Shown in pieces: positions 7,555-24,362 of a DNA stretch of 64,000 bases (the first letter of the stretch is position 1; every line of letters starts with the position of its first letter). The stretch comes from an uncultured delta proteobacterium. Its GTDB lineage: Bacteria > Myxococcota_A > Polyangia > Polyangiales > Polyangiaceae. Both the position numbers and the translations under genes were made by a program. The notes beneath the pieces are model-generated. The model saw only the letters and a program-made list of their open reading frames with translations, had not been told where the DNA came from and searched no databases. The stretch spans positions 64,001-128,000 of the forward strand of contig CAWAIF010000003.1 in assembly GCA_963782055.1 (NCBI GenBank). The letters run 5' to 3'.

Positions 7555-8718
<1,164 letters not shown>

Positions 8719-8721
8719 GCC

Positions 8722-9582
8722 ATGGCAACCGACAAGACCACCTCCGTCGCAGAGCTCGGCTCCCGGTCCAAGGACCGCGACGCCGACAAGCCCAGGGCCA
8801 GGGCGACAGAGCCGGGGGGCGCCGCGGCGTCCGCCGGCTTCATGTACTCGGTCCGCAACACCCTCACGATCGCCAAGCGCGAGCTTCGCGCCTACTTCGA
8901 CTCCCTCGTCGCGTACGTCGTCATCGGCCTGAGCATGTCCCTGCTCGGCCTCTACTTCTTCTTCTACCAGGGCGGCTTCTGGCAGGTGGACCGCGCCACG
9001 ATGGCGCGCCTCTTCGACTTCGCCCCCGCCGCGCTCTGCCTCGTCATCCCGCTCGTGACCATGGGCGTGCTGGCGGAGGAGAAGCGCTCCGGCACCATCG
9101 AGCTGCTCATCACCATGCCGGTCAAGGACACCGAGGTCATCCTCGGCAAGTACCTCGCCGCGCTGGCCATGTGCACCATCCTCCTCGTCGCGACGATGAC
9201 CTACCCCGTCGCCATCTTCGTGTGGCCGTGGCACCTCGGCCCGCTCGACTGGGGTCCCGTCTGGACCGGCTACCTCGGACTGTTTCTGTACTGCGGCGCC
9301 GGCGTCGCCATCGGGATGATGTTCTCGGCCTTCACCGAGAGCCAGATCATCAGCTTCTTCGTCACCGCGGCGACGCTCACCGTCCTCTTCATCCTCGGCG
9401 TGCTCGTCCAGGATCTGCCGGGCGCGCTGGGCGACGTCGTCAGCTTCGTCAGCCTGCAGAGCCGCTTCCTGCCCTTCGCACGCGGCCTCATCGACACGCG
9501 GGCGATCGCCTACTTCGTGTCGATCGCCATCGTGTGCCTGCTCGTATCGTTCCGCTCCCTCGAGAGCAGGAAGTGGAAGTGA
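8722..9582 (+). CDS. ABC-2 permease (GldF-like)
   Basis: IAKRELRAYF, LAEEKRSGTIELL..P and ILGKYLA motifs; about 6 TM segments. Confidence 0.9.
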   Translation: MATDKTTSVAELGSRSKDRDADKPRARATEPGGAAASAGFMYSVRNTLTIAKRELRAYFDSLVAYVVIGLSMSLLGLYFFFYQGGFWQVDRATMARLFDFAPAALCLVIPLVTMGVLAEEKRSGTIELLITMPVKDTEVILGKYLAALAMCTILLVATMTYPVAIFVWPWHLGPLDWGPVWTGYLGLFLYCGAGVAIGMMFSAFTESQIISFFVTAATLTVLFILGVLVQDLPGALGDVVSFVSLQSRFLPFARGLIDTRAIAYFVSIAIVCLLVSFRSLESRKWK

Positions 9583-9585
9583 CCC

Positions 9586-11448
9586 ATGGCCATGGAACGT
9601 AGAACCAAAGCCGCTACCGAGAGCCTCATCCTCGTCGTCGTCATCGCCCTCATCTGCGTGGCGGTGAACGCCCTCGGCGCCTTCGGCGTGTACGCCCGCA
9701 AGGACATGACCAAGGCCGAGCGCTACACGCTGTCGGAGGGCAGCGCCCGCCTCCTGCGGTCGATGAAGCAGAACATGACCGTCGACGCCTACGTCACCAA
9801 GGGCCTGCCCAAGCTGGACGCCTTCGTGCGCGACCTGCGGGACCTGCTCCAGGAGTACAAGCAGGCGAGCGGCGGCAAGTTCGACTACACGATCATCGAG
9901 GCCAAGGACGACGACCAGAAGAAGAAGGACGCCGAGGCCGCGGGCCTCAAGGCCGTCCCCTTCGGCGAGGCCAGCGAGACCGACGAGAAGGTCGGCGTCA
10001 CGCAGGGCTACATGGGCCTCGTCTTCAAGTACGGCGTGGAGAAGGACACCATCCCCTTCCTCTCCCCGGACCAGGGCACCGGCCTGGAGTTCTGGATCAC
10101 CAACAAGATCCGCGAGCTTCGCGACCGGGGCGACAACATCAAGCACAAGATCGGCCTGCTCACCGGCGACGACGAGATGAAGCTCTCGGAGGGCAACCTC
10201 GTCCCCGGCGGCGGCGGGCAGGGCAAGCCGTCGATGCAGGACGTCATCGCGCGCAACTTCCCCTTCTACAACTTCGTCGACGTGGACCTGAAGGGCGGCG
10301 ACCAGCCCATCGATGACTCCCTCGACGGCCTGATCATCACCCAGCCGGGCAAGGACCTGAAGGAGAAGGAGCTCCGCCGCATCGACGAGTTCGTCATGAA
10401 GGGCAAGAGCCTCGCCGTCTTCGCCAGCGCGGTGAACGTGAAGCCCAGCGACGCGACGATGAACGCGACGCTGAGCACCCACGGCCTGGACAAGCTGCTG
10501 GACGGCTACGGCATCGAGCTCCGCAAGGACGTGGTGCTCGACTTCGGCCGCGCCTTCCACGTGACGATGCTCACGCAGGCGGGCCTCGCCAGCGTGCGCT
10601 TCCCGCAGCTCCTCGACGTGCTGGCGGACACGCGCTTCACCGGCGACAACCAGCTCCTCGACACCAGCTTCCCGCCCTTCTTCCGGCAGGAGCAGGTGGT
10701 GCTGCCCTTCGCCTCGTCGATCGTCCTGCACAAGGACAAGCAGCCGAACGCGTCGGACATCAAGATCGTCGCGCGCAGCTCCCCGCGGTCCATCCGCAAG
10801 ACGGACGACACGGTGGACCTCTCCCCCTTCCAGGCCTGGCGGCCCAAGGGCGAGTGGCAGCAGTTCGGCGTCGCGGCCGTCGTCGAGGGCAAGCTGAAGA
10901 GCGCCTTCCCCGCCGGCGACAAGCAGGGCGTGGACGCCGCGCCGGAGGTGCCGGAGGGCAAGAGCGCGCGCGTCTTCGTGCTCGCGTCCAGCCAGTTCAC
11001 CGCCAACCCCTTCGCCCGCGCGGGCAACGGGCAGGACATGAGCCAGTTCGGCATGCACATGCCGATGGGCGGGGACCAGAAGCTCCTGCAGATCGCCGGC
11101 CCCTACGCCGACATGTCGCGTGGCGCGGCCCCGCTGCTCTACGCGATCCTCACCGTCAAGAACACGCTGGACTGGCTGAGCGGCGACGTCGACCTGCTCG
11201 CCGTCTCGGCCAAGATCCTCAGCGACCCCGGCCTCGTCTACGGCGACGTCAGCGCGCCCAAGTTCGACGAGAACGAGACCGAGGACGACATCAAGCGCGA
11301 CGAGAAGCAGATGCGCGAGGCGCGCAAGTCCACGCAGCGCGACATCGGCCTCTTCCTCACGTTCTTCGCGCCGCTGGCCTTCATCGGCTACGGCGTCGGT
11401 CGCTGGCGCTGGCGCACCAACCGCCGTATGAACGTGAAGCTCGCCTGA
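9586..11448 (+). CDS. GldG-family ABC accessory protein
   Basis: N-terminal TM, DMT...RYTLS..S..LL motif, DLLQEY, a GATase-like middle domain and a C-terminal TM; operon context. Confidence 0.85.
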   Translation: MAMERRTKAATESLILVVVIALICVAVNALGAFGVYARKDMTKAERYTLSEGSARLLRSMKQNMTVDAYVTKGLPKLDAFVRDLRDLLQEYKQASGGKFDYTIIEAKDDDQKKKDAEAAGLKAVPFGEASETDEKVGVTQGYMGLVFKYGVEKDTIPFLSPDQGTGLEFWITNKIRELRDRGDNIKHKIGLLTGDDEMKLSEGNLVPGGGGQGKPSMQDVIARNFPFYNFVDVDLKGGDQPIDDSLDGLIITQPGKDLKEKELRRIDEFVMKGKSLAVFASAVNVKPSDATMNATLSTHGLDKLLDGYGIELRKDVVLDFGRAFHVTMLTQAGLASVRFPQLLDVLADTRFTGDNQLLDTSFPPFFRQEQVVLPFASSIVLHKDKQPNASDIKIVARSSPRSIRKTDDTVDLSPFQAWRPKGEWQQFGVAAVVEGKLKSAFPAGDKQGVDAAPEVPEGKSARVFVLASSQFTANPFARAGNGQDMSQFGMHMPMGGDQKLLQIAGPYADMSRGAAPLLYAILTVKNTLDWLSGDVDLLAVSAKILSDPGLVYGDVSAPKFDENETEDDIKRDEKQMREARKSTQRDIGLFLTFFAPLAFIGYGVGRWRWRTNRRMNVKLA

Positions 11449-11476
11449 CGCGCACCTGAACCCCAAAGAGCGAGAA

Positions 11477-12499
11477 ATGGAACGGAACGCGAAGATCGGC
11501 ATTGCCCTCGTCGTCCTCGGCGGCCTGGGGGTGGGCGTCTACTTCCAGGCGAAGAAGGACGCCAAGCTCGGGACGGAGGCCGGCAAGCCGGACCTGCCCG
11601 CGCTGGTCGCCACCGACGACGTCGACAAGATCGACATCACCAACGGCAGCAAGGGCGAGGTGGTGATCGAGAAACGCGGCGACAAGTGGGAGATCACCAA
11701 GCCCCTGGAGGTGATCGCCAACCAGCAGAACGTCAAGAGCCTGCTGGACAACCTGAAGGAGCTGAAGATCTCCGACAAGGCGGTGACCAACGCCGACCAG
11801 GAGACCATCAAGAGCTACGACCTGGGCGCCGACAAGGGCGTGCACGTCGTGACCTTCAAGGGCAAGGACAAGAAGCTGGACGCGACGTTCGGCAAGTCGG
11901 GCGGTCTGGGCGACAGCGTCATGATCCCCGGCAAGCCGGACATCTACCTCGCCAAGGGCTACTCCGGCTTCATGTACACGCGCGAGCTCAAGGACTGGCG
12001 CGACCGCGAGATCTTCAAGTTCGACGACGCCAACGCCATCTCGCTGGAGATCGAGAACAAGAACGGCAAGTTCAGCTTCACCAAGGGCGACGACAAGTGG
12101 GCCGGCACCTTCAAGGGCGCCGCCATCCCGCACTTCGACCCGCAGAAGGTGAAGACGGCCCTCGGCGCCTTCAAGAACCTCACCGCCGAGGACTTCGGCG
12201 ACGGCAAGACGCCCGCCGAGACGGGCCTCGACGCCCCCGAGGAGACGGTCACCATCGCGCTGAAGGACAACGCCGGCACCTTCACCCTCAAGGTGGGCAA
12301 GGCCGCGGGCACCGCCCACTACGCGCAGAAGGACGGCGACTCGACGATCTACACCATCGGCAGCTTCCCCTACGCGTGGGTGACGGCCGAGGAGTCCAAG
12401 TTCGAGGAGAGCGCCGACGCCGGGGCCAAGGCCGGGAGCGCCAAGCCGGCCTCGAGCTTCAAGCTCCCGCCGATGCACCCGCCGCTCAATCACCCCTAG
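11477..12499 (+). CDS. DUF4340-like membrane-anchored protein
   Basis: N-terminal anchor, two repeated domains (W.I.kP..AN..V..LL; tGLDaP..vti; lkVG), WRDR motif; usual fourth gene of GldAFG-like operons. Confidence 0.75.
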   Translation: MERNAKIGIALVVLGGLGVGVYFQAKKDAKLGTEAGKPDLPALVATDDVDKIDITNGSKGEVVIEKRGDKWEITKPLEVIANQQNVKSLLDNLKELKISDKAVTNADQETIKSYDLGADKGVHVVTFKGKDKKLDATFGKSGGLGDSVMIPGKPDIYLAKGYSGFMYTRELKDWRDREIFKFDDANAISLEIENKNGKFSFTKGDDKWAGTFKGAAIPHFDPQKVKTALGAFKNLTAEDFGDGKTPAETGLDAPEETVTIALKDNAGTFTLKVGKAAGTAHYAQKDGDSTIYTIGSFPYAWVTAEESKFEESADAGAKAGSAKPASSFKLPPMHPPLNHP

Positions 12500-13595: not shown

Positions 13596-15018
13596 CGTCC
13601 GGCGGCTTGTCCTTCAGCTTCACCCGCGGGCGTAGCTCTCGCTCGAGCACGTCCATCGGCACGTCGCCGAAGGCGAGCCACGCCGACGCGCGAGGCCCGG
13701 CGGCGGCCATTCCTTGACGCATCAACCATTCGACCGCGAGGCCGCGGCCGATCGCCTCCACCGGCCGCGTCGCCGCGAAGCGCAGCAGCCGCCCCTCGCG
13801 CTCCGGCGGGAGGAACGCCATCGGCTTGACGATCGCGTCCAGCACGCCGGTGCCCGCGCCGTGAGCCAGCGCGATGGCCCACCGCGCCGCCACCACCTGC
13901 GCCTGCATCGACATCAGGACGACGAGCTGCTGGTCGGCGGTCTGCGCCTCCTCCAGCGCGGGGCCCAGGGCGCAGATGCCCGCGCGCTCCGGCGGCGGCT
14001 GCATCCTCCGCAGCCGCGACGGCGTCTGCGGCGCGGGGCAATCGCCGGGCGTACGCAGCGCGTCGTCCACGGCCGCGGCGTAGCCCTCGTCGGTGGCCTT
14101 CACCACCATCAGGGCGTCCACTGCGGCGCGTAGCTGCCTGTCCTCCGACTCGAAGAGCCGCGAGAGGGTCTCCGGCGTGAGGGTGGTGCCCACCTGCGCG
14201 GCCAGCGCCGCGGCCACCTCCTTCCAGCGGTCCTTGCCGGCGGGCGCGACCTGCATGTTCTCGGCGGCGATGCGCAGCCGCGTCAGCGCCGCCTGGCTCC
14301 GCGGCCAACCCACCTCCACCTTCGTCTCGAGGGGGTCCAGCGCGTCCTCAAGATCCTCCCGCTCCACGAGGGAGAGGGCGCCGGCGGTGAGCGAGGCCGC
14401 CACGGCGTCCAGCCGCTTCGCCAGCCACTCGTCGCGCTGCGCGAGGGCCTGCGGCGTGCGTGGCGCCCTCCACCCGGCCACCAGCCCCCGCACCAGCGTG
14501 CCCGCGGAGCGCGGCAGCTCGCGCTCCGTCCGGAGCCGCGAGCGCTCTGCCGTGAGCCAGCGTCCGAGCAGCTCGCGCTCCAGCTCCGGCTGCAGGTGCC
14601 GTCCGGGCGCCGGGTCGGCGATCGGCCGCTTCCACCCGGCGAGCACGCCCGCCGCCGCGGTCAGCGCGCGCCCGCGAGCGTCGAAGGAGAGCACGTCGGT
14701 GCGGCCGCCCTCCACCCCCACGTCGGGGTCCTCCGCGAGGATCGCCCCGACCACCGACTTGCGAAGCTGGGCGTCGGAGGGCGAGACGCGCGCGCGCAGG
14801 GCGATGCGCGGGTCGGTCGCGGCGAGCAGCGTGACGATGCGGTCCTCGTCGGCGAGGAAGCGCCCGAGCGCGCTCCGGTCCGCCCTCGCCTCTGCCCGCG
14901 CGCGGCCGGCCTCGTGGGGCGGAGGCGCCGCCGGGCCGCACGCCGCGCACGCGACGGCGAGCAGCGCGCCGAGGATCGCCCTGGACCGCAGGCGCGCCGG
15001 TCGCGGGGACGCTCTCAA
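13558..15018 (-). CDS. Hypothetical lipoprotein
   Basis: C-terminal part of the 1277-aa track ORF. TTG at 15018 overlaps the yjbQ stop (TTGA) and is followed by a signal peptide ending VACAAC. Confidence 0.6.
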   Translation of the reverse strand: MRASPRPARLRSRAILGALLAVACAACGPAAPPPHEAGRARAEARADRSALGRFLADEDRIVTLLAATDPRIALRARVSPSDAQLRKSVVGAILAEDPDVGVEGGRTDVLSFDARGRALTAAAGVLAGWKRPIADPAPGRHLQPELERELLGRWLTAERSRLRTERELPRSAGTLVRGLVAGWRAPRTPQALAQRDEWLAKRLDAVAASLTAGALSLVEREDLEDALDPLETKVEVGWPRSQAALTRLRIAAENMQVAPAGKDRWKEVAAALAAQVGTTLTPETLSRLFESEDRQLRAAVDALMVVKATDEGYAAAVDDALRTPGDCPAPQTPSRLRRMQPPPERAGICALGPALEEAQTADQQLVVLMSMQAQVVAARWAIALAHGAGTGVLDAIVKPMAFLPPEREGRLLRFAATRPVEAIGRGLAVEWLMRQGMAAAGPRASAWLAFGDVPMDVLERELRPRVKLKDKPPDASAPQPPASPRP

Positions 15019-15428
15019 AACCCGAGCACCTTGACGATCACCCGCTTGGGGCGCTGGCCATCGAACTCGGCGTAGAAAATGCGCTGCCACGGCCCGAGGT
15101 CCAGCCGCGCGTTGGTCACCGGCACCGTCACCTCGTGGTGCACCAGCATCGACTTCAGGTGGGCGTGCCCGTTGTCCTCGCCGGTGCGGTGGTGCAGGTA
15201 CTCCGGCCCCTCCGGCGCGAGGTGTTCCAGCCACTTCCAGATGTCGTGGTGCAGGCCGGCCTCGTCGTCGTTCACGAAGACCCCGGCGGTGATGTGCATC
15301 GCCGAGACGAGCATGAAGCCCTCCTCGATGCCGCTGCGCTCCAGGAGACCCTCCAGCGTCCCGGTGAGGTGCACCAGCTCGCGCTTCTTCTTCGTGGTGA
15401 AGGTGAGGTACTCGGTGAACGACTTCAT
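15015..15428 (-). CDS. yjbQ: YjbQ/UPF0047 family protein
   Basis: HITAGVFVND, YLHHRTGEDNGHAHLK and LGPWQRIFYAEFDG.R motifs. Confidence 0.92.
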   Translation of the reverse strand: MKSFTEYLTFTTKKKRELVHLTGTLEGLLERSGIEEGFMLVSAMHITAGVFVNDDEAGLHHDIWKWLEHLAPEGPEYLHHRTGEDNGHAHLKSMLVHHEVTVPVTNARLDLGPWQRIFYAEFDGQRPKRVIVKVLGF

Positions 15429-15513: not shown

Positions 15514-17532
15514 ATGGCCATGCCGTCGTCCTTCGACCTTGCTTCCCGTCCTGCGCCGGCGGCCGCCCCGGCCCCGTCGCCGGCGCGCCCGCCGGTCGCC
15601 GCGGTCGAGGCGCCCACCCCGACAGCGGAGAAGCCGATGGTGCGCGCGGCGCGTGTGGCCGAGCGCCTGGCGACACGCGCGGCACGCGCGCTGTGGCCGG
15701 CGGTGCAGAAGTTCAACGTGGCCTTCGAGCGCCCCGCGCCCCATCCGAAGTGGGCCCCCCGCCCGCTGATGAAGCGCCGCGAGAAGACCTTCCCCCAGCT
15801 CGGCTGGCCGCGCGAGACCGACTCCCTCTGCCCCCGCTGCGTCAAGGAAGTGCGCGGCGACATCCTGGACGGCGTGCGCGATCTCTCCACCCTGGTGGAC
15901 GGCAAGCCGGGGGAGATCCGCGCGACGATCCTGGAGCAGGACGGCGAGCTCCTCATGGTGAAGGAGTGCGCGAAGCACGGCCGCTTCGAGGACGTGATGA
16001 GCATCGACCCGGAGTTCACGCGGCGCATCGAGCGCCTCTACCCGGGCCGCGACTTCCTCGCGCCGCCGACGCCGCTGCGCAACCACGGCACCTCCAGCGT
16101 CAAGTACGGCCGCGGCAGCGTGCTGACGGTGGACCTGACCAACCGCTGCAACATGATGTGCGACCCGTGCTTCATGGACGCCAACCAGGTCGGCTACGTC
16201 CACGAGCTGGAGTGGCACGAGGTCCAGCAGATCCTGGACGACTCGCTCACCATCAAGCCGCGCCGGCAGCTCAGCGTGCAGTTCTCCGGCGGCGAGCCCA
16301 CGCTCTCCCCGCACTTCCTCCGCGCCGTCCAGTACGCGCGCGACGTCGGGTACTTCTGCGTGCAGTGCGCGACCAACGGCATCCGCTTCGCGCAGGACCG
16401 CGACTTCTGCGTCCAGGCGAAGGAGGCCGGCCTGCGCCTCGCGTACCTGCAGTTCGACGGCGTGACCAACGCGGCCAACGGCCACCGCAAGGTGGGCAAC
16501 CTCTTCGACGTGAAGAAGCGCGCCATCGAGAACCTGCACGCCGCCGGCGTGGACGTGGTGCTCGTCGTGACCGTCGTCAACGGGGTGAACAACGACCAGG
16601 TCGGCCCCATCCTGGACTTCGCCATCGCCAACGCCGACAAGATCACCGTCGTGTCCTTCCAGCCGGTGAGCTTCACCGGTCGCGACGAGGACATCTCCGA
16701 CGCCGATCGCGTGCGCCAGCGCTACACGCTCTCGCACCTGGCGCACGACGTGAAGGTGCAGACCGGCGTGACCGAGCCCCTGCGCGACTGGTTCCCCCTC
16801 TCGGCGATGGGTCCCTTCAGCGATCTGGCGGACCTGCTGCAGGACCCGACGATGGAGTTTGGCGCCCTCAACTGCGGCTGTCACCCCAACTGCGGGATGG
16901 GCACCATCCTCTTCGTCAACAAGAAGACCAAGCAGATGGTCCCGCTCAGCCAGTTTTTGGACATGGACCAGTTTCTGCTGGACCTGGGCGACATCAACGA
17001 CGGCGCCCAGCCGCGCCCGGTGACGATGGCGCAGACCGCGCTCGCCCTGCTCAAGAACTTCCGCCCGGACAAGGCGCCGCCCAACTACACCTTCGCCGAC
17101 CTGATCCGCCAGTTTCGCAGCCAGACGGGCACGCGCGGCAAGAAGATCGGCGAGTACGAGACCGACGCCGGCGAGTTCGAGTGGCGCGTGCTCTTCGTCG
17201 CCGGCATGTGGTTCCAGGATCTGTTCAACTACGACTTCCGCCGCACCGAGATGTGCATCATCCCCTACGGCACGCAGATGGGGGAGATCAGCTTCTGCGC
17301 CTACAACACCGGCGTCGGCTGGCGGAACGTCATCGAGAAGATGAAGGCGAACGCCTCGGTGGCGGAGTGGTACAAGACGCGCGGCCGGCACCCCGTCTAC
17401 GCGAAGAACCAGGAGCTGCCCCTGCCGGAGGAGCTCGGCACGGTCGTGATGCCGCGGTCGGCGCAGGAGCTAGAGAAGCGCGACGCCGAGAAGGCGACAC
17501 GCAAGCGGGTCCGCCTGAACATCGTCCACTGA
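15514..17532 (+). CDS. Radical SAM enzyme, tetraether synthase (Tes/MJ0619)-like
   Basis: SLCPRC..KECAKHG metal site, DLTNRCNMMCDPCF, QFSGGEPT, YLQFDG, FQPVSFTGR, HPNCG and C-terminal FQD..N.D.RR...C...Y......FCAYN. Start at 15514 or 15520. Confidence 0.8.
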   Translation: MAMPSSFDLASRPAPAAAPAPSPARPPVAAVEAPTPTAEKPMVRAARVAERLATRAARALWPAVQKFNVAFERPAPHPKWAPRPLMKRREKTFPQLGWPRETDSLCPRCVKEVRGDILDGVRDLSTLVDGKPGEIRATILEQDGELLMVKECAKHGRFEDVMSIDPEFTRRIERLYPGRDFLAPPTPLRNHGTSSVKYGRGSVLTVDLTNRCNMMCDPCFMDANQVGYVHELEWHEVQQILDDSLTIKPRRQLSVQFSGGEPTLSPHFLRAVQYARDVGYFCVQCATNGIRFAQDRDFCVQAKEAGLRLAYLQFDGVTNAANGHRKVGNLFDVKKRAIENLHAAGVDVVLVVTVVNGVNNDQVGPILDFAIANADKITVVSFQPVSFTGRDEDISDADRVRQRYTLSHLAHDVKVQTGVTEPLRDWFPLSAMGPFSDLADLLQDPTMEFGALNCGCHPNCGMGTILFVNKKTKQMVPLSQFLDMDQFLLDLGDINDGAQPRPVTMAQTALALLKNFRPDKAPPNYTFADLIRQFRSQTGTRGKKIGEYETDAGEFEWRVLFVAGMWFQDLFNYDFRRTEMCIIPYGTQMGEISFCAYNTGVGWRNVIEKMKANASVAEWYKTRGRHPVYAKNQELPLPEELGTVVMPRSAQELEKRDAEKATRKRVRLNIVH

Positions 17533-17563: not shown

Positions 17564-18535
17564 CTACTTCTCCTCGCAGACGCCCGAGACGGTGCGGCGG
17601 CCGAGGACCAGCGTGCACTGCTTGAGGATGTCCATCGCCAGGACGCCGTCGCGCGGGCAGAAAGGATCCTCCGCGCCGGGAATGAGGTCCACGTTGCGCA
17701 TCGCCTCCACCGCTCCCACGTTCATCCTGGCGCCCCTCACCGTGCGGGGCGTGACCCGCCCCGACGCCGCGTAGACCGCCTCCTTCGACTCCTCGCTGCG
17801 CGGCAACAGCGCCTTGCCCACCTTGGACGTCATGAGCAGGTCCGACTGGTGGGCGCCGGTGTCGATGAGCAGGCGCGCGTCGTGGCCCTCGACCGTCGCG
17901 TTCACCACGAAGGCGAGGCCGTGGAAGGGGCTCTCGTCGTCCACGCACGCGTGCGGCGGCTCCAGGGTGAGCAAGCTGCCGACCGCGGTGGGGGTGGCGT
18001 CCACCGCGATGGTGCGCATCTCGGAGTGGGGGAAGTCGAGCACGACATCGAGGCCATCCCCGGCGAGCTGCTGCGGCGAGAGAAACACGCCGATGCCGAG
18101 GCGCGAGACGGCCTCCGGCACGTCGGTCACCAGCATGGACTGGTCTGCGAGCTCGCCCCAGCCGTCGATGCTGACGTGCGGGTGCGGCGCCCGCCGCGTC
18201 TCGATGGGGCGGCCGACGTGGTCGGTCCCGGTGTCCCCCAGGCTGAGCGTGGTGAGGCCCACCTTGCGCGCGAGCCACCCGGCGATGACGTGCGAGTTGG
18301 CGCCGGTGTCGACCAGGAAGATGGTCTCCTCGCCGGCGACCTTGCCGTGGACGATGGGCAGCGGGAAGGGCTTGCCGTTGAGGGTGAACTCCAGGTCCAC
18401 CTTGCGCGGGCCCTCGCCTCCCACCGACGCCTTCGTCCCGCGGTGCGCGCTCGACGCGCCCTTGCCGCCGGAGGACGAAGGGCCGCACGCTGCGAGCAGC
18501 AGGCAAGTGGCGAGCGCCACACGATGGGACGACAC
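17564..18535 (-). CDS. Lipoprotein with two retropepsin-like aspartic protease domains
   Basis: LLAAC lipobox; FLVDTGA and LLIDTGA motifs; DGVLAMDIL near the C-terminus. Confidence 0.75.
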   Translation of the reverse strand: MSSHRVALATCLLLAACGPSSSGGKGASSAHRGTKASVGGEGPRKVDLEFTLNGKPFPLPIVHGKVAGEETIFLVDTGANSHVIAGWLARKVGLTTLSLGDTGTDHVGRPIETRRAPHPHVSIDGWGELADQSMLVTDVPEAVSRLGIGVFLSPQQLAGDGLDVVLDFPHSEMRTIAVDATPTAVGSLLTLEPPHACVDDESPFHGLAFVVNATVEGHDARLLIDTGAHQSDLLMTSKVGKALLPRSEESKEAVYAASGRVTPRTVRGARMNVGAVEAMRNVDLIPGAEDPFCPRDGVLAMDILKQCTLVLGRRTVSGVCEEK

Positions 18536-20522: not shown

Positions 20523-22221
20523 ATGAAGCGAACGAGGGCTCTGGCGGTGTACGCGTTCACGTTGACCGGCGTCGTGGGGGGGGGGTTGGGGGCCTGCTCC
20601 ACGCGCCCACAGGAGGAAGCCGTCGCACGTTCGTCCGCAGGTCTGACGATCGCGCCGAACCAGCCCATACCAGGACCTCCCTGGCTGCACGAGACAGCGG
20701 TCGCCGCGGTGCTCGACCCGCAGACGCAGATGCGTAGGTGGGTGGTCGGATCCAACAACTGCCAGGACCCGCTGCACTGCAATGGCGGCAAGGTACCCGC
20801 GTGGTCGTTCTCGACCGACCTCACCGGCACGTCCTGGACCACCAGCCTGATGAGCACCGGCGCAGACTGGGGAGATCCGGGCATCGGCTCCAATGGCGTA
20901 TCTTTCGTGCCGGGCGGCGGGCTCCTGGGTGATCCGGGGCTCGCTGCAGTGACCGATCCCTCGATCTCGAACAACGGCTCTCGCGTCATCTACACCAGCG
21001 TCGCCTATGACGGCGCCGGAAACGTGAACTCACCCAGCGACATCGTGGCCGCAGTCTCCGACGACGGGGGAGCGCACTTCCACGACGCACAGTACGTCGA
21101 CATTCCGCTGACGAGCTGCGCAGTGAAGACGGGGGGTTGGAGGAAGAAGTGTGGCGCCGGGGGTACGGATGGCCCCTTCATCCAGTCCGACGCCAGTGGT
21201 CCCTTCAGTACGTACGTATCGTGGACCGCTGGTGGGGACGGATGGATCAACTGGATCCGATTCGATGCGCCGAATGCCGGCGGCGGCTTCACGAGGGGGC
21301 ACTCCAGTCCGGATTCCGAACGACGCCGATACTGGGAGCATCCACCCCAAGTTCGCGTTCGGTACCTTGATCGCGTGCTCGACGCAGACAGAACATGAAG
21401 CGCTGTACGTGGCCTGGCCGGAGGTGGTCTCCGGGCTCTACGCGGGGAGGTGCAATGGTACGCAGTCTTTGGTGCACGTCAGCTGGCGCTGGGCTGTGTA
21501 CGACACGGTGGACCAGGTCTGGTTCCCTCCCGTGGGGAACTGGACCATCGACGACGACACGGCGTGGCCCAACTGCGTGGGCAACCCGATCAACGTCGGC
21601 TACCCCACCGGATGGAACTCGACGAACCAGCCCTTCGCATCGGTCGCCGCGTTCCACAACCAGGTCGCCTTCGTCCACGACCGCTCCGGCTCCCACGGAC
21701 TGGGCACGCGAGTCAGCATCCACGACTACGCGTTGGTTTGCAGCGGCGGGACCCAGGTGCCCGCGCCGGGCCCCATCTACGAAGCCCCGGATCCCTGCTA
21801 CAACACCGCCGGGTGCAACTTCGTCGACGGTGGCCCCGGCGGGAACGGACCGGACGGTGGAGTCGTGGTGGCGGACGAGTGGGGCGCCGTCCTGTCGTTT
21901 CTTGGACCGCCTGCCGTTCCGAACCAGGAGCTCTTGCTGACCTGGTACGGTATGCGCGACGACACCACCTTCAACAACCAGTTTGCACGCGTCTACGGCG
22001 GCGTCACGGGCAACATCTGGGGTAATCCGTTCTTGATGATGCAGCCTGTCGCCGTTGGCACGCCGGGCCAGGCGGTTCCTTGGGACCACAACCTCGCGCC
22101 GTGGTGGGACTATCAGGCCATCGGGGCGGACGCCACATCCAACTCCTTCCTGGCCGCATGGGGCGGGGACGCTCGCTATGGCGGCCCGACGGCCATCTGG
22201 ACGGCGAGGGTCTTCCCGTGA
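20523..22221 (+). pseudogene. Secreted lipoprotein (BNR/Asp-box-like), split by a +1 frameshift (real or sequencing error)
   Basis: GGAGG RBS, LGAC lipobox and SDDGG.hF Asp-box-like motif. Removing one G from the G5 run at 21295-21299 joins track ORFs 20481..21398 and 21151..22221 into one frame (GFTRGTPVRIPND). Confidence 0.65.
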
Positions 22222-23186
22222 CGCAGCGCATCCGCCGTGGGCTGTCGCTTGCGGCCCTCGGACTCTGCGCTTGCGGGAGCACGCCCTCCGGGACGCCGGC
22301 AGACGCCGGCCCTCCGGAGGCGAGCGATGACGCCGGCGCGCCCCGGTGCGACGTCTCCGCTCCGTTCCAGGCAGCCGTACCCCTCGCGGGGATCGACACG
22401 CCCGACCACGACGAATACGACGTGCGGCTGACGCCCGACGAGCTCACGGCGTACTTCGTCAGCAACCGCGCGAGGGCGATGGCGAATCAGTCGGACGTGT
22501 TCGTGGCGACGCGCGACGCGGTCGGGGTGCCCTTCGGGACGCCAGCGCTCGTGCCGGGCATGGCGAACCCCAACGCGTCGGCCGAGGATCCGAACGTCAC
22601 GCCGGATCAACTCTCGCTGGTCTTCATCGGGGCGTGTAACAACATCTTCGACAGGCCGCCGCGTCTCTGCCAGGCGACGCGCCCGAGCACCTCGGTACCC
22701 TTCGGGACGCCCACGTTCATCACCACCGTGAACACCGGAGGCAGTCCCTATGTCGTTGACGATGGGCTCACCGTCTACTTCGAGACGAACCAGTGGGGCG
22801 GCGCGGACATCGGGGTGTCGCGGCGACCGGCGGTGGGCCAGCCCTTCGGGACCGCCCCGGCCATGGTGAAGGTCACCGGGATGGGAGACGCCGGCCCCGT
22901 GCTGCTCAACGGCCCCGTCCTCACGCCGGACGAGCGGACGATGTTCTTCTACCGGGCGGAGCTGCTCTCCGGACGGCAGATCGGCAACATCTGGCAAGCA
23001 ACCCGCGCGTCGACGGACGCGCCGTTCGGGGACGCAGGCGCCGTCGCCAGCCTCGCCACCGCCGCCGGTGAGTATGCGAACTGGATCTCCCCGGACGGCT
23101 GCAGGCTCTACTTCACCCGCGCGATCCCCACCGACCCCGCGGGGGATTTCCAGCAGGACATCTACGTGAGCGAGCGTGTGCACTGA
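22218..23186 (+). CDS. PD40/TolB-like beta-propeller lipoprotein, copy 1
   Basis: GTG start overlaps the upstream stop (GTGA); LCAC lipobox; repeats LTPDE.t.yF / ATR....pFG.P / ISPDGCRLYF. Confidence 0.8.
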   Translation: MTQRIRRGLSLAALGLCACGSTPSGTPADAGPPEASDDAGAPRCDVSAPFQAAVPLAGIDTPDHDEYDVRLTPDELTAYFVSNRARAMANQSDVFVATRDAVGVPFGTPALVPGMANPNASAEDPNVTPDQLSLVFIGACNNIFDRPPRLCQATRPSTSVPFGTPTFITTVNTGGSPYVVDDGLTVYFETNQWGGADIGVSRRPAVGQPFGTAPAMVKVTGMGDAGPVLLNGPVLTPDERTMFFYRAELLSGRQIGNIWQATRASTDAPFGDAGAVASLATAAGEYANWISPDGCRLYFTRAIPTDPAGDFQQDIYVSERVH

Positions 23187-23232
23187 CGCGGCACTCCGGG
23201 TGTCCCATCGTCGGATGGCACAAGTCGTGAAC

Positions 23233-23397
23233 GGCACGCAGGGCCAGACGGTTCCGTGGCACCACAACCTCGCGCCGTGGTGGGACCACCAGGCCATCGG
23301 GGCGGACGCCACATCCAACTCCTTCCTGGCCGCATGGGGCGGGGACGCTCGCTATGGCGGCCCGACAGGCCTCTGGACGGCGAGGGTCTTCCCGTGA
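23233..23397 (+). pseudogene. Duplicated 3' fragment of the 20523-22221 gene
   Basis: Encodes GTQGQTVPWHHNLAPWWDHQAIG..WTARVFP, matching the end of the upstream protein with several substitutions. Confidence 0.85.
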
Positions 23398-24362
23398 CGC
23401 AGCGCATCTGCCGTGGGCTGTCGCTTGCGGCCCTCGGACTCTGCGCTTGCGGGAGCACGCCCTCCGGGACGCCGGCAGACGCCGGCCCTCCGGAGGCGAG
23501 CGATGACGCCGGCGCGCCCCGGTGCGACGTCTCCGCTCCGTTCCAGGCAGCCGTACCCCTCGCGGGGATCGACACGCCCGACCACGACGAGTACGACGTG
23601 CGGCTGACGCCCGACGAACGCACGGCGTACTTCATCAGCAACCGCGCACGCGCGGACCCGACCCAGTCGGACGTGTTCGTGGCGACGCGCGACGCGGTCG
23701 GGGAGCCGTTCGGGACGCCGGCGCTCGTGCCGGGCATGGCGTATCCCAACGCCTCGGCCGAGGATCCGAACGTCACGCCGGATCAGCTCTCGCTGGTGTT
23801 CATTGGCGCGCCCAACACCATCTTCGACAGGCCGCCTCGACTCTGCGAGGCGACGCGCCCGAGCACCTCGGTACCCTTCGGGACGCCCACGTTCATCACC
23901 ACCGTGAACACCGGAGCCGCGCCCTACCTCGTCAACGATGGGCTCACAGTGTACTTCGTGACGCACCAGTGGGGCGGCGAGGACATCGGGGTGTCGCGGC
24001 GACCGGCGGTGGGCCAGCCCTTCGGGACCGCCCCGGCCTTGGTGCCAGTCACCGGGATGGGAGACGCCGGCCCCGTGCTGCTCAACGGCCCAGTCCTCAC
24101 GCCGGACGAGCGGACGATGTTCTTCGTGCGGGTGGATCTGGTGTCGGGGCGGGTGCTCGGCAACATCTGGCAGGCCAGCCGCGCGTCGACGGACGCGCCG
24201 TTCGGGGACGCCGGCGCCGTCGGCAGCCTCGCCACCGCCGCCGGTGAGGCTGCGAACTGGATCTCCCCGGACGGCTGCAGGCTCTACTTCACCCGCGCGA
24301 TCCCCACCGACCCCGCGGGGGACTTCCAGCAGGACATCTACGTGAGCGAGCGGGCGCGCTGA
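23394..24362 (+). CDS. PD40/TolB-like beta-propeller lipoprotein, copy 2
   Basis: Same length as copy 1, with clustered amino-acid differences. Confidence 0.8.
   Translation: MTQRICRGLSLAALGLCACGSTPSGTPADAGPPEASDDAGAPRCDVSAPFQAAVPLAGIDTPDHDEYDVRLTPDERTAYFISNRARADPTQSDVFVATRDAVGEPFGTPALVPGMAYPNASAEDPNVTPDQLSLVFIGAPNTIFDRPPRLCEATRPSTSVPFGTPTFITTVNTGAAPYLVNDGLTVYFVTHQWGGEDIGVSRRPAVGQPFGTAPALVPVTGMGDAGPVLLNGPVLTPDERTMFFVRVDLVSGRVLGNIWQASRASTDAPFGDAGAVGSLATAAGEAANWISPDGCRLYFTRAIPTDPAGDFQQDIYVSERAR

Follow-up and report, generated by a model that had tools for sequence, protein, structure and literature searches.

The locus and its family assignment

The window analysed here, a stretch of 64,000 nucleotides, carries on its forward strand an open reading frame for a 672-residue radical SAM protein that stands alone between a divergent yjbQ gene and a convergent aspartic protease gene, neither of which is conserved past close relatives (Table 1). 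The frame contains no internal stops, and a GC3 of 0.97 indicates strong coding bias. The start is uncertain: the database version of the same gene is 680 residues long, and because the first 41 residues of the 672-residue form are rich in Ala and Pro and many close homologues measure ~635 residues, the ATG at 15637 is also a possible start. A promoter scan of the gene returned no signal exceeding shuffled controls, and a search of a plasmid collection at 1e-30 returned no match.

The protein contains two Pfam domains, radical SAM and the HMPTM N-terminal ribbon. Its best NCBIfam match was Tes (NF045702; 330.8 bits, E 1.3e-98), across profile positions 2–481 of 486, while the TrsS radical SAM (seleno)protein family (NF045646) matched at 210.6 bits, below its cut-off of 490. 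The sole strong relative in the PDB was GDGT-MAS (7TOL, E 2.9e-66; runner-up E 1.7e-4), with an alignment covering residues 135–619. These figures, far outside the range of chance, make the protein a genuine homologue of archaeal Tes/GDGT-MAS, and the Tes-like identity that a sequence-only reading of this DNA had proposed is upheld. It is a divergent variant and not canonical Tes, because its score falls below the 450-bit cut-off of NF045702. Since two defining tests come out against it, Tes proper is the wrong label; yet in every sequence test related to catalysis the protein is Tes-like. The genome, 97% complete, has no other Tes-like gene.

Table 1. Features of the Tes-like locus, in window coordinates (residue numbers refer to the 672-residue form)
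Feature	Position	Strand	Basis and remarks
YjbQ/UPF0047 gene, divergent neighbour	15015..15428	-	Next to the gene in 7 close genomes; missing from the conserved neighbours of 80 distant loci
Tes/GDGT-MAS-like radical SAM gene	15514..17532	+	672 aa; candidate starts 15490, 15514, 15520, 15637
Rubredoxin-like site C106, C109, C152, H155 (= MJ0619 C9, C12, C33, H36)	15829..15981	+	PF23545, 7TOL alignment; ~20-residue insertion; invariant in 199/199
Loop NHGTSSVKYGRG, residues 190–201, in place of the N-terminal [4Fe-4S] ligands	16081..16116	+	Alignment with the MJ0619 C73/C77/C80/His segment
Radical-SAM CxxxCxxC (C212, C216, C219; residues 212–219)	16147..16170	+	Pfam, 7TOL alignment
FQPVSFTGR loop, residues 382–390: Q383, S386, T388, R390 (= MJ0619 Q268, S271, T273, R275; 5'-deoxyadenosine binding and gating)	16657..16683	+	Alignment, compared with PMC9433317 Extended Data Fig. 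4 legend
CGCHPNCG (HPNCG = 457–461): C460, predicted C-terminal cluster ligand; C454 and C456 clade-invariant	16873..16896	+	Clade conservation
Helical segment, residues 462–562, corresponding to the C-terminal region of Tes, a likely site of lipid-pocket helices	16897..17199	+	7TOL alignment and hydropathy
GMWFQD...EMCIIPY...SFCAYN: M565 (= Met439), C581, Y585 (= Tyr459), C595; FQD 567–569, FCAYN 594–598	17203..17307	+	7TOL alignment, clade conservation
Clade-specific C-terminal W619...H626 motif	17368..17391	+	W619 199/199, H626 198/199
Predicted lipoprotein gene, two retropepsin-like aspartic protease domains, convergent	17564-18535		Adjacent in 4 close genomes

Metal sites and residue conservation

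The comparison with MJ0619 is based on alignment to 7TOL, for which the chain numbering is offset by 20. Four metal centres are described for MJ0619: a rubredoxin iron with Cys3His ligands, an N-terminal cluster on the surface (C73, C77, C80 and a His), the cluster that cleaves SAM, and a C-terminal one bound by three Cys and a labile Met439, to which the first lipid radical is tethered by a C-S bond (PMC9433317, PMC13459092). Conservation was scored over 199 sequences of the clade to which the protein belongs (119 database homologues and 80 loci from genome searches); the 80 loci were retrieved with patterns containing M565 and C212, and the counts for those two residues are therefore partly circular there.

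No Cys occurs from residue 153 to 211, and the ligands of the N-terminal auxiliary [4Fe-4S] cluster are absent. The Cys-free loop NHGTSSVKYGRG aligns with the corresponding MJ0619 segment, in agreement with the earlier suggestion that the Cys-rich N-terminal stretch of the archaeal enzyme had been replaced, and its H191, invariant in the clade, aligns with the middle Cys. Residues 172–203 are likewise free of Cys in 193 of the 199 sequences, the other 6 having one Cys. All of the metal ligands listed in Table 1 are invariant across the 199 sequences, with Y585 present in 198. Residues of the SAM and 5'-deoxyadenosine site that match MJ0619 include C212, C216, C219, F220, G260, Y311, D315, T353, Q383, S386, T388 and R390; the exceptions are Arg210, for which R325 or K326 stands here, and Asn108, which corresponds to D222. 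Given their conserved positions, C460, C581 and C595 are the predicted ligands of the C-terminal cluster. As judged by alignment, it is the surface N-terminal cluster that is lost and the catalytic set, including the C-terminal cluster, that is retained. The motif order put forward by the sequence-only reading is present in full, although its match to MJ0619 is one of position and not of identity, MJ0619 having HQHCG, FMD and FCTYN.

The likeness to MJ0619 Tes/GDGT-MAS (7TOL, 7TOM; NF045702; PMC9433317, PMC8941075) extends to domain order, the Cys3His site, the SAM cluster, the SAM-site residues, Met439, Tyr459 and the C-terminal Cys positions, in an alignment that spans almost the entire chain. 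Unlike MJ0619, this bacterial protein carries an N-terminal extension, an insertion in the rubredoxin domain and a C-terminal tail, in addition to lacking the N-terminal cluster ligands, and its clade has a set of invariant residues of its own (H191, H324, C454, C456 and H626, the last in 198 of 199 sequences; W619 is also invariant). H324 and H626 are absent at the equivalent positions of the canonical Tes rows. These extra residues, W619 aside, could mark a changed chemistry. Within the helical segment, hydropathy correlates at r 0.81 with bacterial canonical rows and 0.60 with archaeal-type rows (best shifted controls 0.21 and 0.28). Because distant relatives also reach 0.48, the pattern hints only weakly at a lipid pocket.

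Phylogeny of the cluster-less clade

Both trees were built with the lost N-terminal loop left out and were rooted on distant relatives. The cluster-less proteins formed one group in the first tree (41 of 71 rows, SH-aLRT 100) and again in the second (19 of 46 rows, 100/100), which used LG+G4 without a mixture, omitted 25 rows of the first as long branches or near-duplicates, and took its group names from the first. This clade is nested in a bacterial Tes-like group together with canonical acidobacterial proteins, including those of the Solibacter usitatus Acid_5929 type (545 aa, 40% identical to MA_1486; PMC10087280 supplement), at 100/100, and the distant relatives fall apart from it and the Tes-like rows. 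A constrained tree that joined the canonical and archaeal-type rows and left the cluster-less clade outside was rejected (p-AU 0.019). The phylogeny proposed as a check by the sequence-only reading thus places the clade inside the Tes-like rows, in trees whose archaeal-type rows score above the cut-off (two of them named Asgard) and whose rows include no biochemically characterised Tes. The Polyangia rows form a single subgroup amid acidobacterial rows.

A separate protein that scores above the Tes cut-off (P0211, 584 bits) is also missing the N-terminal cluster motif; it is recorded together with P0278–P0280, and members of the cluster are named Candidatus Parcubacteria. Its position far from the clade in the tree makes this loss look like an independent event.

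Distribution in Myxococcota

The closest named homologues belong to the Polyangiaceae, including Pendulispora at 76–77% identity, and the Polyangia homologues as a whole are 62–86% identical with every ligand retained. Pendulispora albinea and P. brunnea are examples of cultured carriers. In the Myxococcota genome sample, 12 of 17 genomes from the organism's own family carried the clade, as did 1 of 233 others; a further 26 genomes held distant relatives only, and none held a protein above the Tes cut-off. A sample of relatives gave 13 of 24 genomes for the family and 2 of 16 for other families of the order. The gene is carried by all 6 congeners searched, in three of them in pieces or split across contigs. 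Within Myxococcota the clade is nearly confined to the Polyangiaceae. This narrow occurrence weakens the link that the sequence-only reading had drawn to the organism through the iso-branched ether lipids of myxobacteria, which are documented chiefly in Myxococcus xanthus (PMC9131029). The literature searched on diabolic acid and myxobacteria, consisting of titles and abstract openings and mostly without subscription journals, gave no mention of such lipids spanning the membrane in myxobacteria, Polyangiaceae included.

Tes-family radical SAM genes that are more distantly related also occur in other Myxococcota (L140–L155), where a single contig sometimes carries two or three near one another; the N-terminal cluster motif is present in most of them.

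Distribution in Acidobacteriota and relation to iso-diabolic acid

Clade members were counted with the 672-residue protein as query at E 1e-120, a threshold that leaves out canonical copies (which score 1e-90 to 1e-108). Each acidobacterial group was named after a centre genome that had been picked as a carrier and is included in its count; the unpublished genome G068 is counted in the 401-genome phylum sample and in one class (9 of 41), and G759 in the Acidobacteriaceae family. Members were present in 58 of 61 genomes from the Acidobacteriaceae family, 45 of 51 from a Bryobacterales family, 59 of 61 from the Blastocatellia class and 37 of 61 from the Vicinamibacteria class (not found in 24), groups that correspond to subdivisions 1, 3, 4 and 6. 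Two further classes were patchy (9/41, and 22/41 with two partial). None of 51 genomes from another class, which we take to be Holophagae, had a match at E 1e-60. Across the phylum sample a Tes-like match occurred in 244 of 401 genomes, of which just 43 passed the canonical cut-off.

[quoted passage not shown] The non-producers listed there include Holophaga, Geothrix, Thermotomaculum and Thermoanaerobaculum, and three tested Holophagae strains make none. The distribution of the clade fits the iso-diabolic acid of aerobic Acidobacteria, as it would fit any core function; the match is not independent evidence, because few related lineages are involved and any core gene there would show it. A possible exception is S. 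usitatus, in which iso-diabolic acid was below detection (PMC10087280) and whose Acid_2410 (714 aa) is probably a clade member.

A rare divergent paralogue (P0127 from T. roseus, P0133 and P0153; L180–L182) keeps the rubredoxin and SAM motifs, and the three proteins inspected have lost some or all of the C-terminal cluster Cys. P0127 has lost these Cys and would run contrary to the model if it were the sole copy of its strain. Close matches to these degenerate paralogues were found in 3 of 401 Acidobacteriaceae-family genomes, each also carrying a full-length main-clade copy; T. roseus itself lies outside that sample.

Gene neighbourhood and the rest of the genome

No lipid gene recurs across phyla in the neighbourhoods of the close genomes and of 80 distant loci. 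Lipid-A genes lie beside the clade gene in up to 17 of the 80, mostly from Blastocatellia, and were read as lineage synteny. In two acidobacterial genomes (L071:5902-11183 and L078:5845-10294) a canonical Tes-like gene sits near the clade gene on the same strand; in L078 this canonical copy appears split across two frames. One acidobacterial class has an Rrf2-family regulator gene preceding the clade gene (L175, L176 and L178 by scan, L179 by eye), which may point to regulation linked to O2 or Fe-S; in L175 and L176 a TIGR03960 B12 radical SAM gene also adjoins it, divergently.

Elsewhere in this genome, the ElbD domain set (reductase, AMP-binding, carrier and acyltransferase) occurs in one protein (C3:5158580-5164096), and a Ger/PlsA-like protein has two BcrAD domains and a DUF2229 (C3:5012620-5016384). 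A scan of the genome for the Mss motif gave no credible match, and the radical SAM motif of the 672-residue protein reads CNMMCDPC, against the CNxxCxGC of Mss. The genome also contains a TIGR03960-family B12 radical SAM gene (G000:C2:35370-38354; 680 bits, above cut-off), which was rejected as an Mss candidate, the supplement on Mss listing TIGR03960 as a different protein. None of the four E1-alpha genes in the genome could be assigned to a branched-chain ketoacid dehydrogenase, which would supply iso-fatty acids.

Two other parts of the window were recorded. Positions 7555-12499 hold GldA/GldF/GldG-like ABC transporter genes and a DUF4340 gene, all under the Gld cut-offs, and the best protein-cluster matches of the GldG-like protein are from Myxococcota. 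Positions 22026-24362 hold two successive open frames with near-identical peptide stretches, suggesting a tandem duplication of ~1.1–1.2 kb; the frames scanned there had no Pfam or NCBIfam match.

Relation to published systems

Bacterial Tes homologues have been in print since 2022, when 456 were collected and a candidate role in brGDGT synthesis was proposed for them (PMC8941075). Sorangium, Labilithrix and Minicystis homologues appear in the supplementary tree of that paper, so that Tes homologues of myxobacteria as such are already published; loss of the cluster in a subclade was not found described in the available parts of the literature searched, which was mostly without subscription journals and included 10.1101/2022.04.07.487437, PMC13274423, PMC12042123 and 10.64898/2026.09.04.749484. 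Canonical acidobacterial Tes proteins, which score above the cut-off and have the N-terminal cluster motif, are 36–37% identical to this protein. Longer acidobacterial homologues, S. usitatus Acid_2410 (30% identity, E 4e-62) and one from E. aggregans (32%, E 4e-61), are given in a supplement (PMC10087280). Their lengths and weak scores fit the cluster-less clade, members of which reach ~710 residues in Bryobacterales, and we infer that both belong to it; in the available text of PMC8941075 and PMC10087280, homologues of the Acid_2410 type figure merely as weaker BLAST hits.

Among the sources examined, including the accessible text of PMC8941075 and PMC11868695, no bacterial Tes homologue has a confirmed activity, and the latter still termed it unconfirmed in 2025. 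Chen et al. 2025 is cited elsewhere for the involvement of Tes in diabolic tetraesters (PMC13023045) and, going by that citing paper, may already cover part of what is reported here. The role proposed below resembles that of Mss, a radical SAM enzyme shown to couple bacterial fatty-acid tails; Mss is a remote relative of Tes with a CNxxCxGC motif, found in anaerobes and absent from the Acidobacteria screened (PMC13159169).

Discussion

The enzyme encoded at this locus, a member of the Tes family without the N-terminal cluster ligands, probably makes membrane-spanning lipids by coupling lipid tails. The data establish homology, conserved residues, membership of the clade, its distribution and the ether-lipid genes of this genome; the cofactors as well as the substrate, reaction and product are inferred. 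Two fatty-acyl or alkyl tails would be joined at their terminal carbons, yielding lipids of the iso-diabolic-acid or branched-GDGT type. As in MJ0619, SAM would be cleaved at the C212/C216/C219 cluster and the resulting 5'-deoxyadenosyl radical would take a hydrogen from a tail methyl, after which the tail radical would be stored on one sulfur of the C-terminal [4Fe-4S] cluster (C460, C581 and C595 being the predicted ligands, with labile M565). A further tail radical, generated by a second SAM, would then displace the sulfur and make the C-C bond. Electrons would arrive from the surface rubredoxin-like iron without the N-terminal cluster, and any ether links in this organism might be made by the ElbD-like or Ger/PlsA-like proteins.

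Tail coupling is favoured because the only strong PDB relative is GDGT-MAS and because the SAM site, the equivalents of Met439 and Tyr459, and the metal ligands are kept; because in MJ0619 the lost cluster is the surface one and the C-terminal cluster the catalytic one; and because the clade nests among Tes-like rows (100/100, p-AU 0.019). It is further favoured because the clade is common in iso-diabolic-acid subdivisions that are without Mss and reaches 0/51 in the presumed Holophagae, and because this genome has one protein of ElbD architecture, another that is Ger/PlsA-like, a single Tes-like gene and no credible Mss motif. Counted against it are the score of 331 bits against a cut-off of 450, neighbours without a recurring lipid gene, the patchiness of the clade in two classes, and the undetected iso-diabolic acid of S. 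usitatus.

The alternative that survives best, though we consider it unlikely, keeps lipid tails as the substrate and changes the product, to a macrocyclic diether or diester formed within one molecule, a lipid containing sulfur, a desaturation, or a cross-link placed on some other hydrophobic component of the membrane. MJ0619 itself also yields macrocyclic archaeol and a thiolated lipid intermediate (PMC9433317), the invariant Cys/His set peculiar to the clade lies close to the C-terminal cluster, and the coexistence of canonical and clade copies in some Acidobacteria, even side by side, suggests divided labour; the literature searched, moreover, did not mention membrane-spanning lipids from Polyangiaceae. 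Against a different product, the distribution follows the subdivisions that produce iso-diabolic acid, where most genomes are without canonical Tes, and the counterparts of Met439 and Tyr459 are retained.

A more remote alternative, to which we give little credence, is a Tes-fold enzyme acting on a non-lipid substrate (a cofactor, small molecule or peptide), as in more distant members of the family. Automatic annotation does name some homologues pterin dimethyltransferase, the TrsS profile gives a weaker match (211 bits against 490), and the neighbourhood is uninformative. The pterin-methylase assignment of MJ0619, however, was not corroborated by Lloyd et al. (PMC9433317), and the clade groups with Tes-like rows, away from distant relatives, with the hydropathy pattern of the helical segment kept. 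Polyangiaceae fatty acids are largely straight-chain, and this, with the patchiness of the gene in its own family (12/17 and 13/24 genomes), speaks for a last and least probable account, in which tails are coupled in Acidobacteria while the Polyangiaceae make no meaningful membrane-spanning lipid, the product being trace or condition-specific or a partner electron donor being needed in place of the lost cluster, against which stand the gene's presence in 6 of 6 congeners (three in pieces or across contigs) and Polyangia homologues that stay 62–86% identical with all ligands kept.

A broader proposal goes beyond tail coupling as such and is advanced tentatively, the balance lying somewhat against it. 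The clade, with three metal centres, may be the so far missing enzyme that couples tails in aerobic soil Acidobacteria, responsible for iso-diabolic acid and much soil brGDGT and overlooked at ~30% identity to archaeal Tes, which is where published thresholds lie. Membrane-spanning or branched-GDGT lipids would then have an unrecognised source in the Polyangiaceae, with the clade gene as the only Tes-like synthase alongside ElbD-type genes.

Branched GDGTs are widely used as palaeotemperature and pH proxies. In aerobic Acidobacteria, from which Mss is absent and where canonical Tes explains few producers, the clade offers one candidate, which is highly conserved and whose occurrence matches the subdivisions with producers. 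Should the proposal be false, a near-core acidobacterial radical SAM enzyme would remain to be explained. Genomes that carry this Tes-like gene alone, as here, are suited to a clean test. If the proposal is true, the tail-joining enzyme would be named, soil myxobacteria would join the producers, and one of the three iron-sulfur clusters of Tes would be dispensable.
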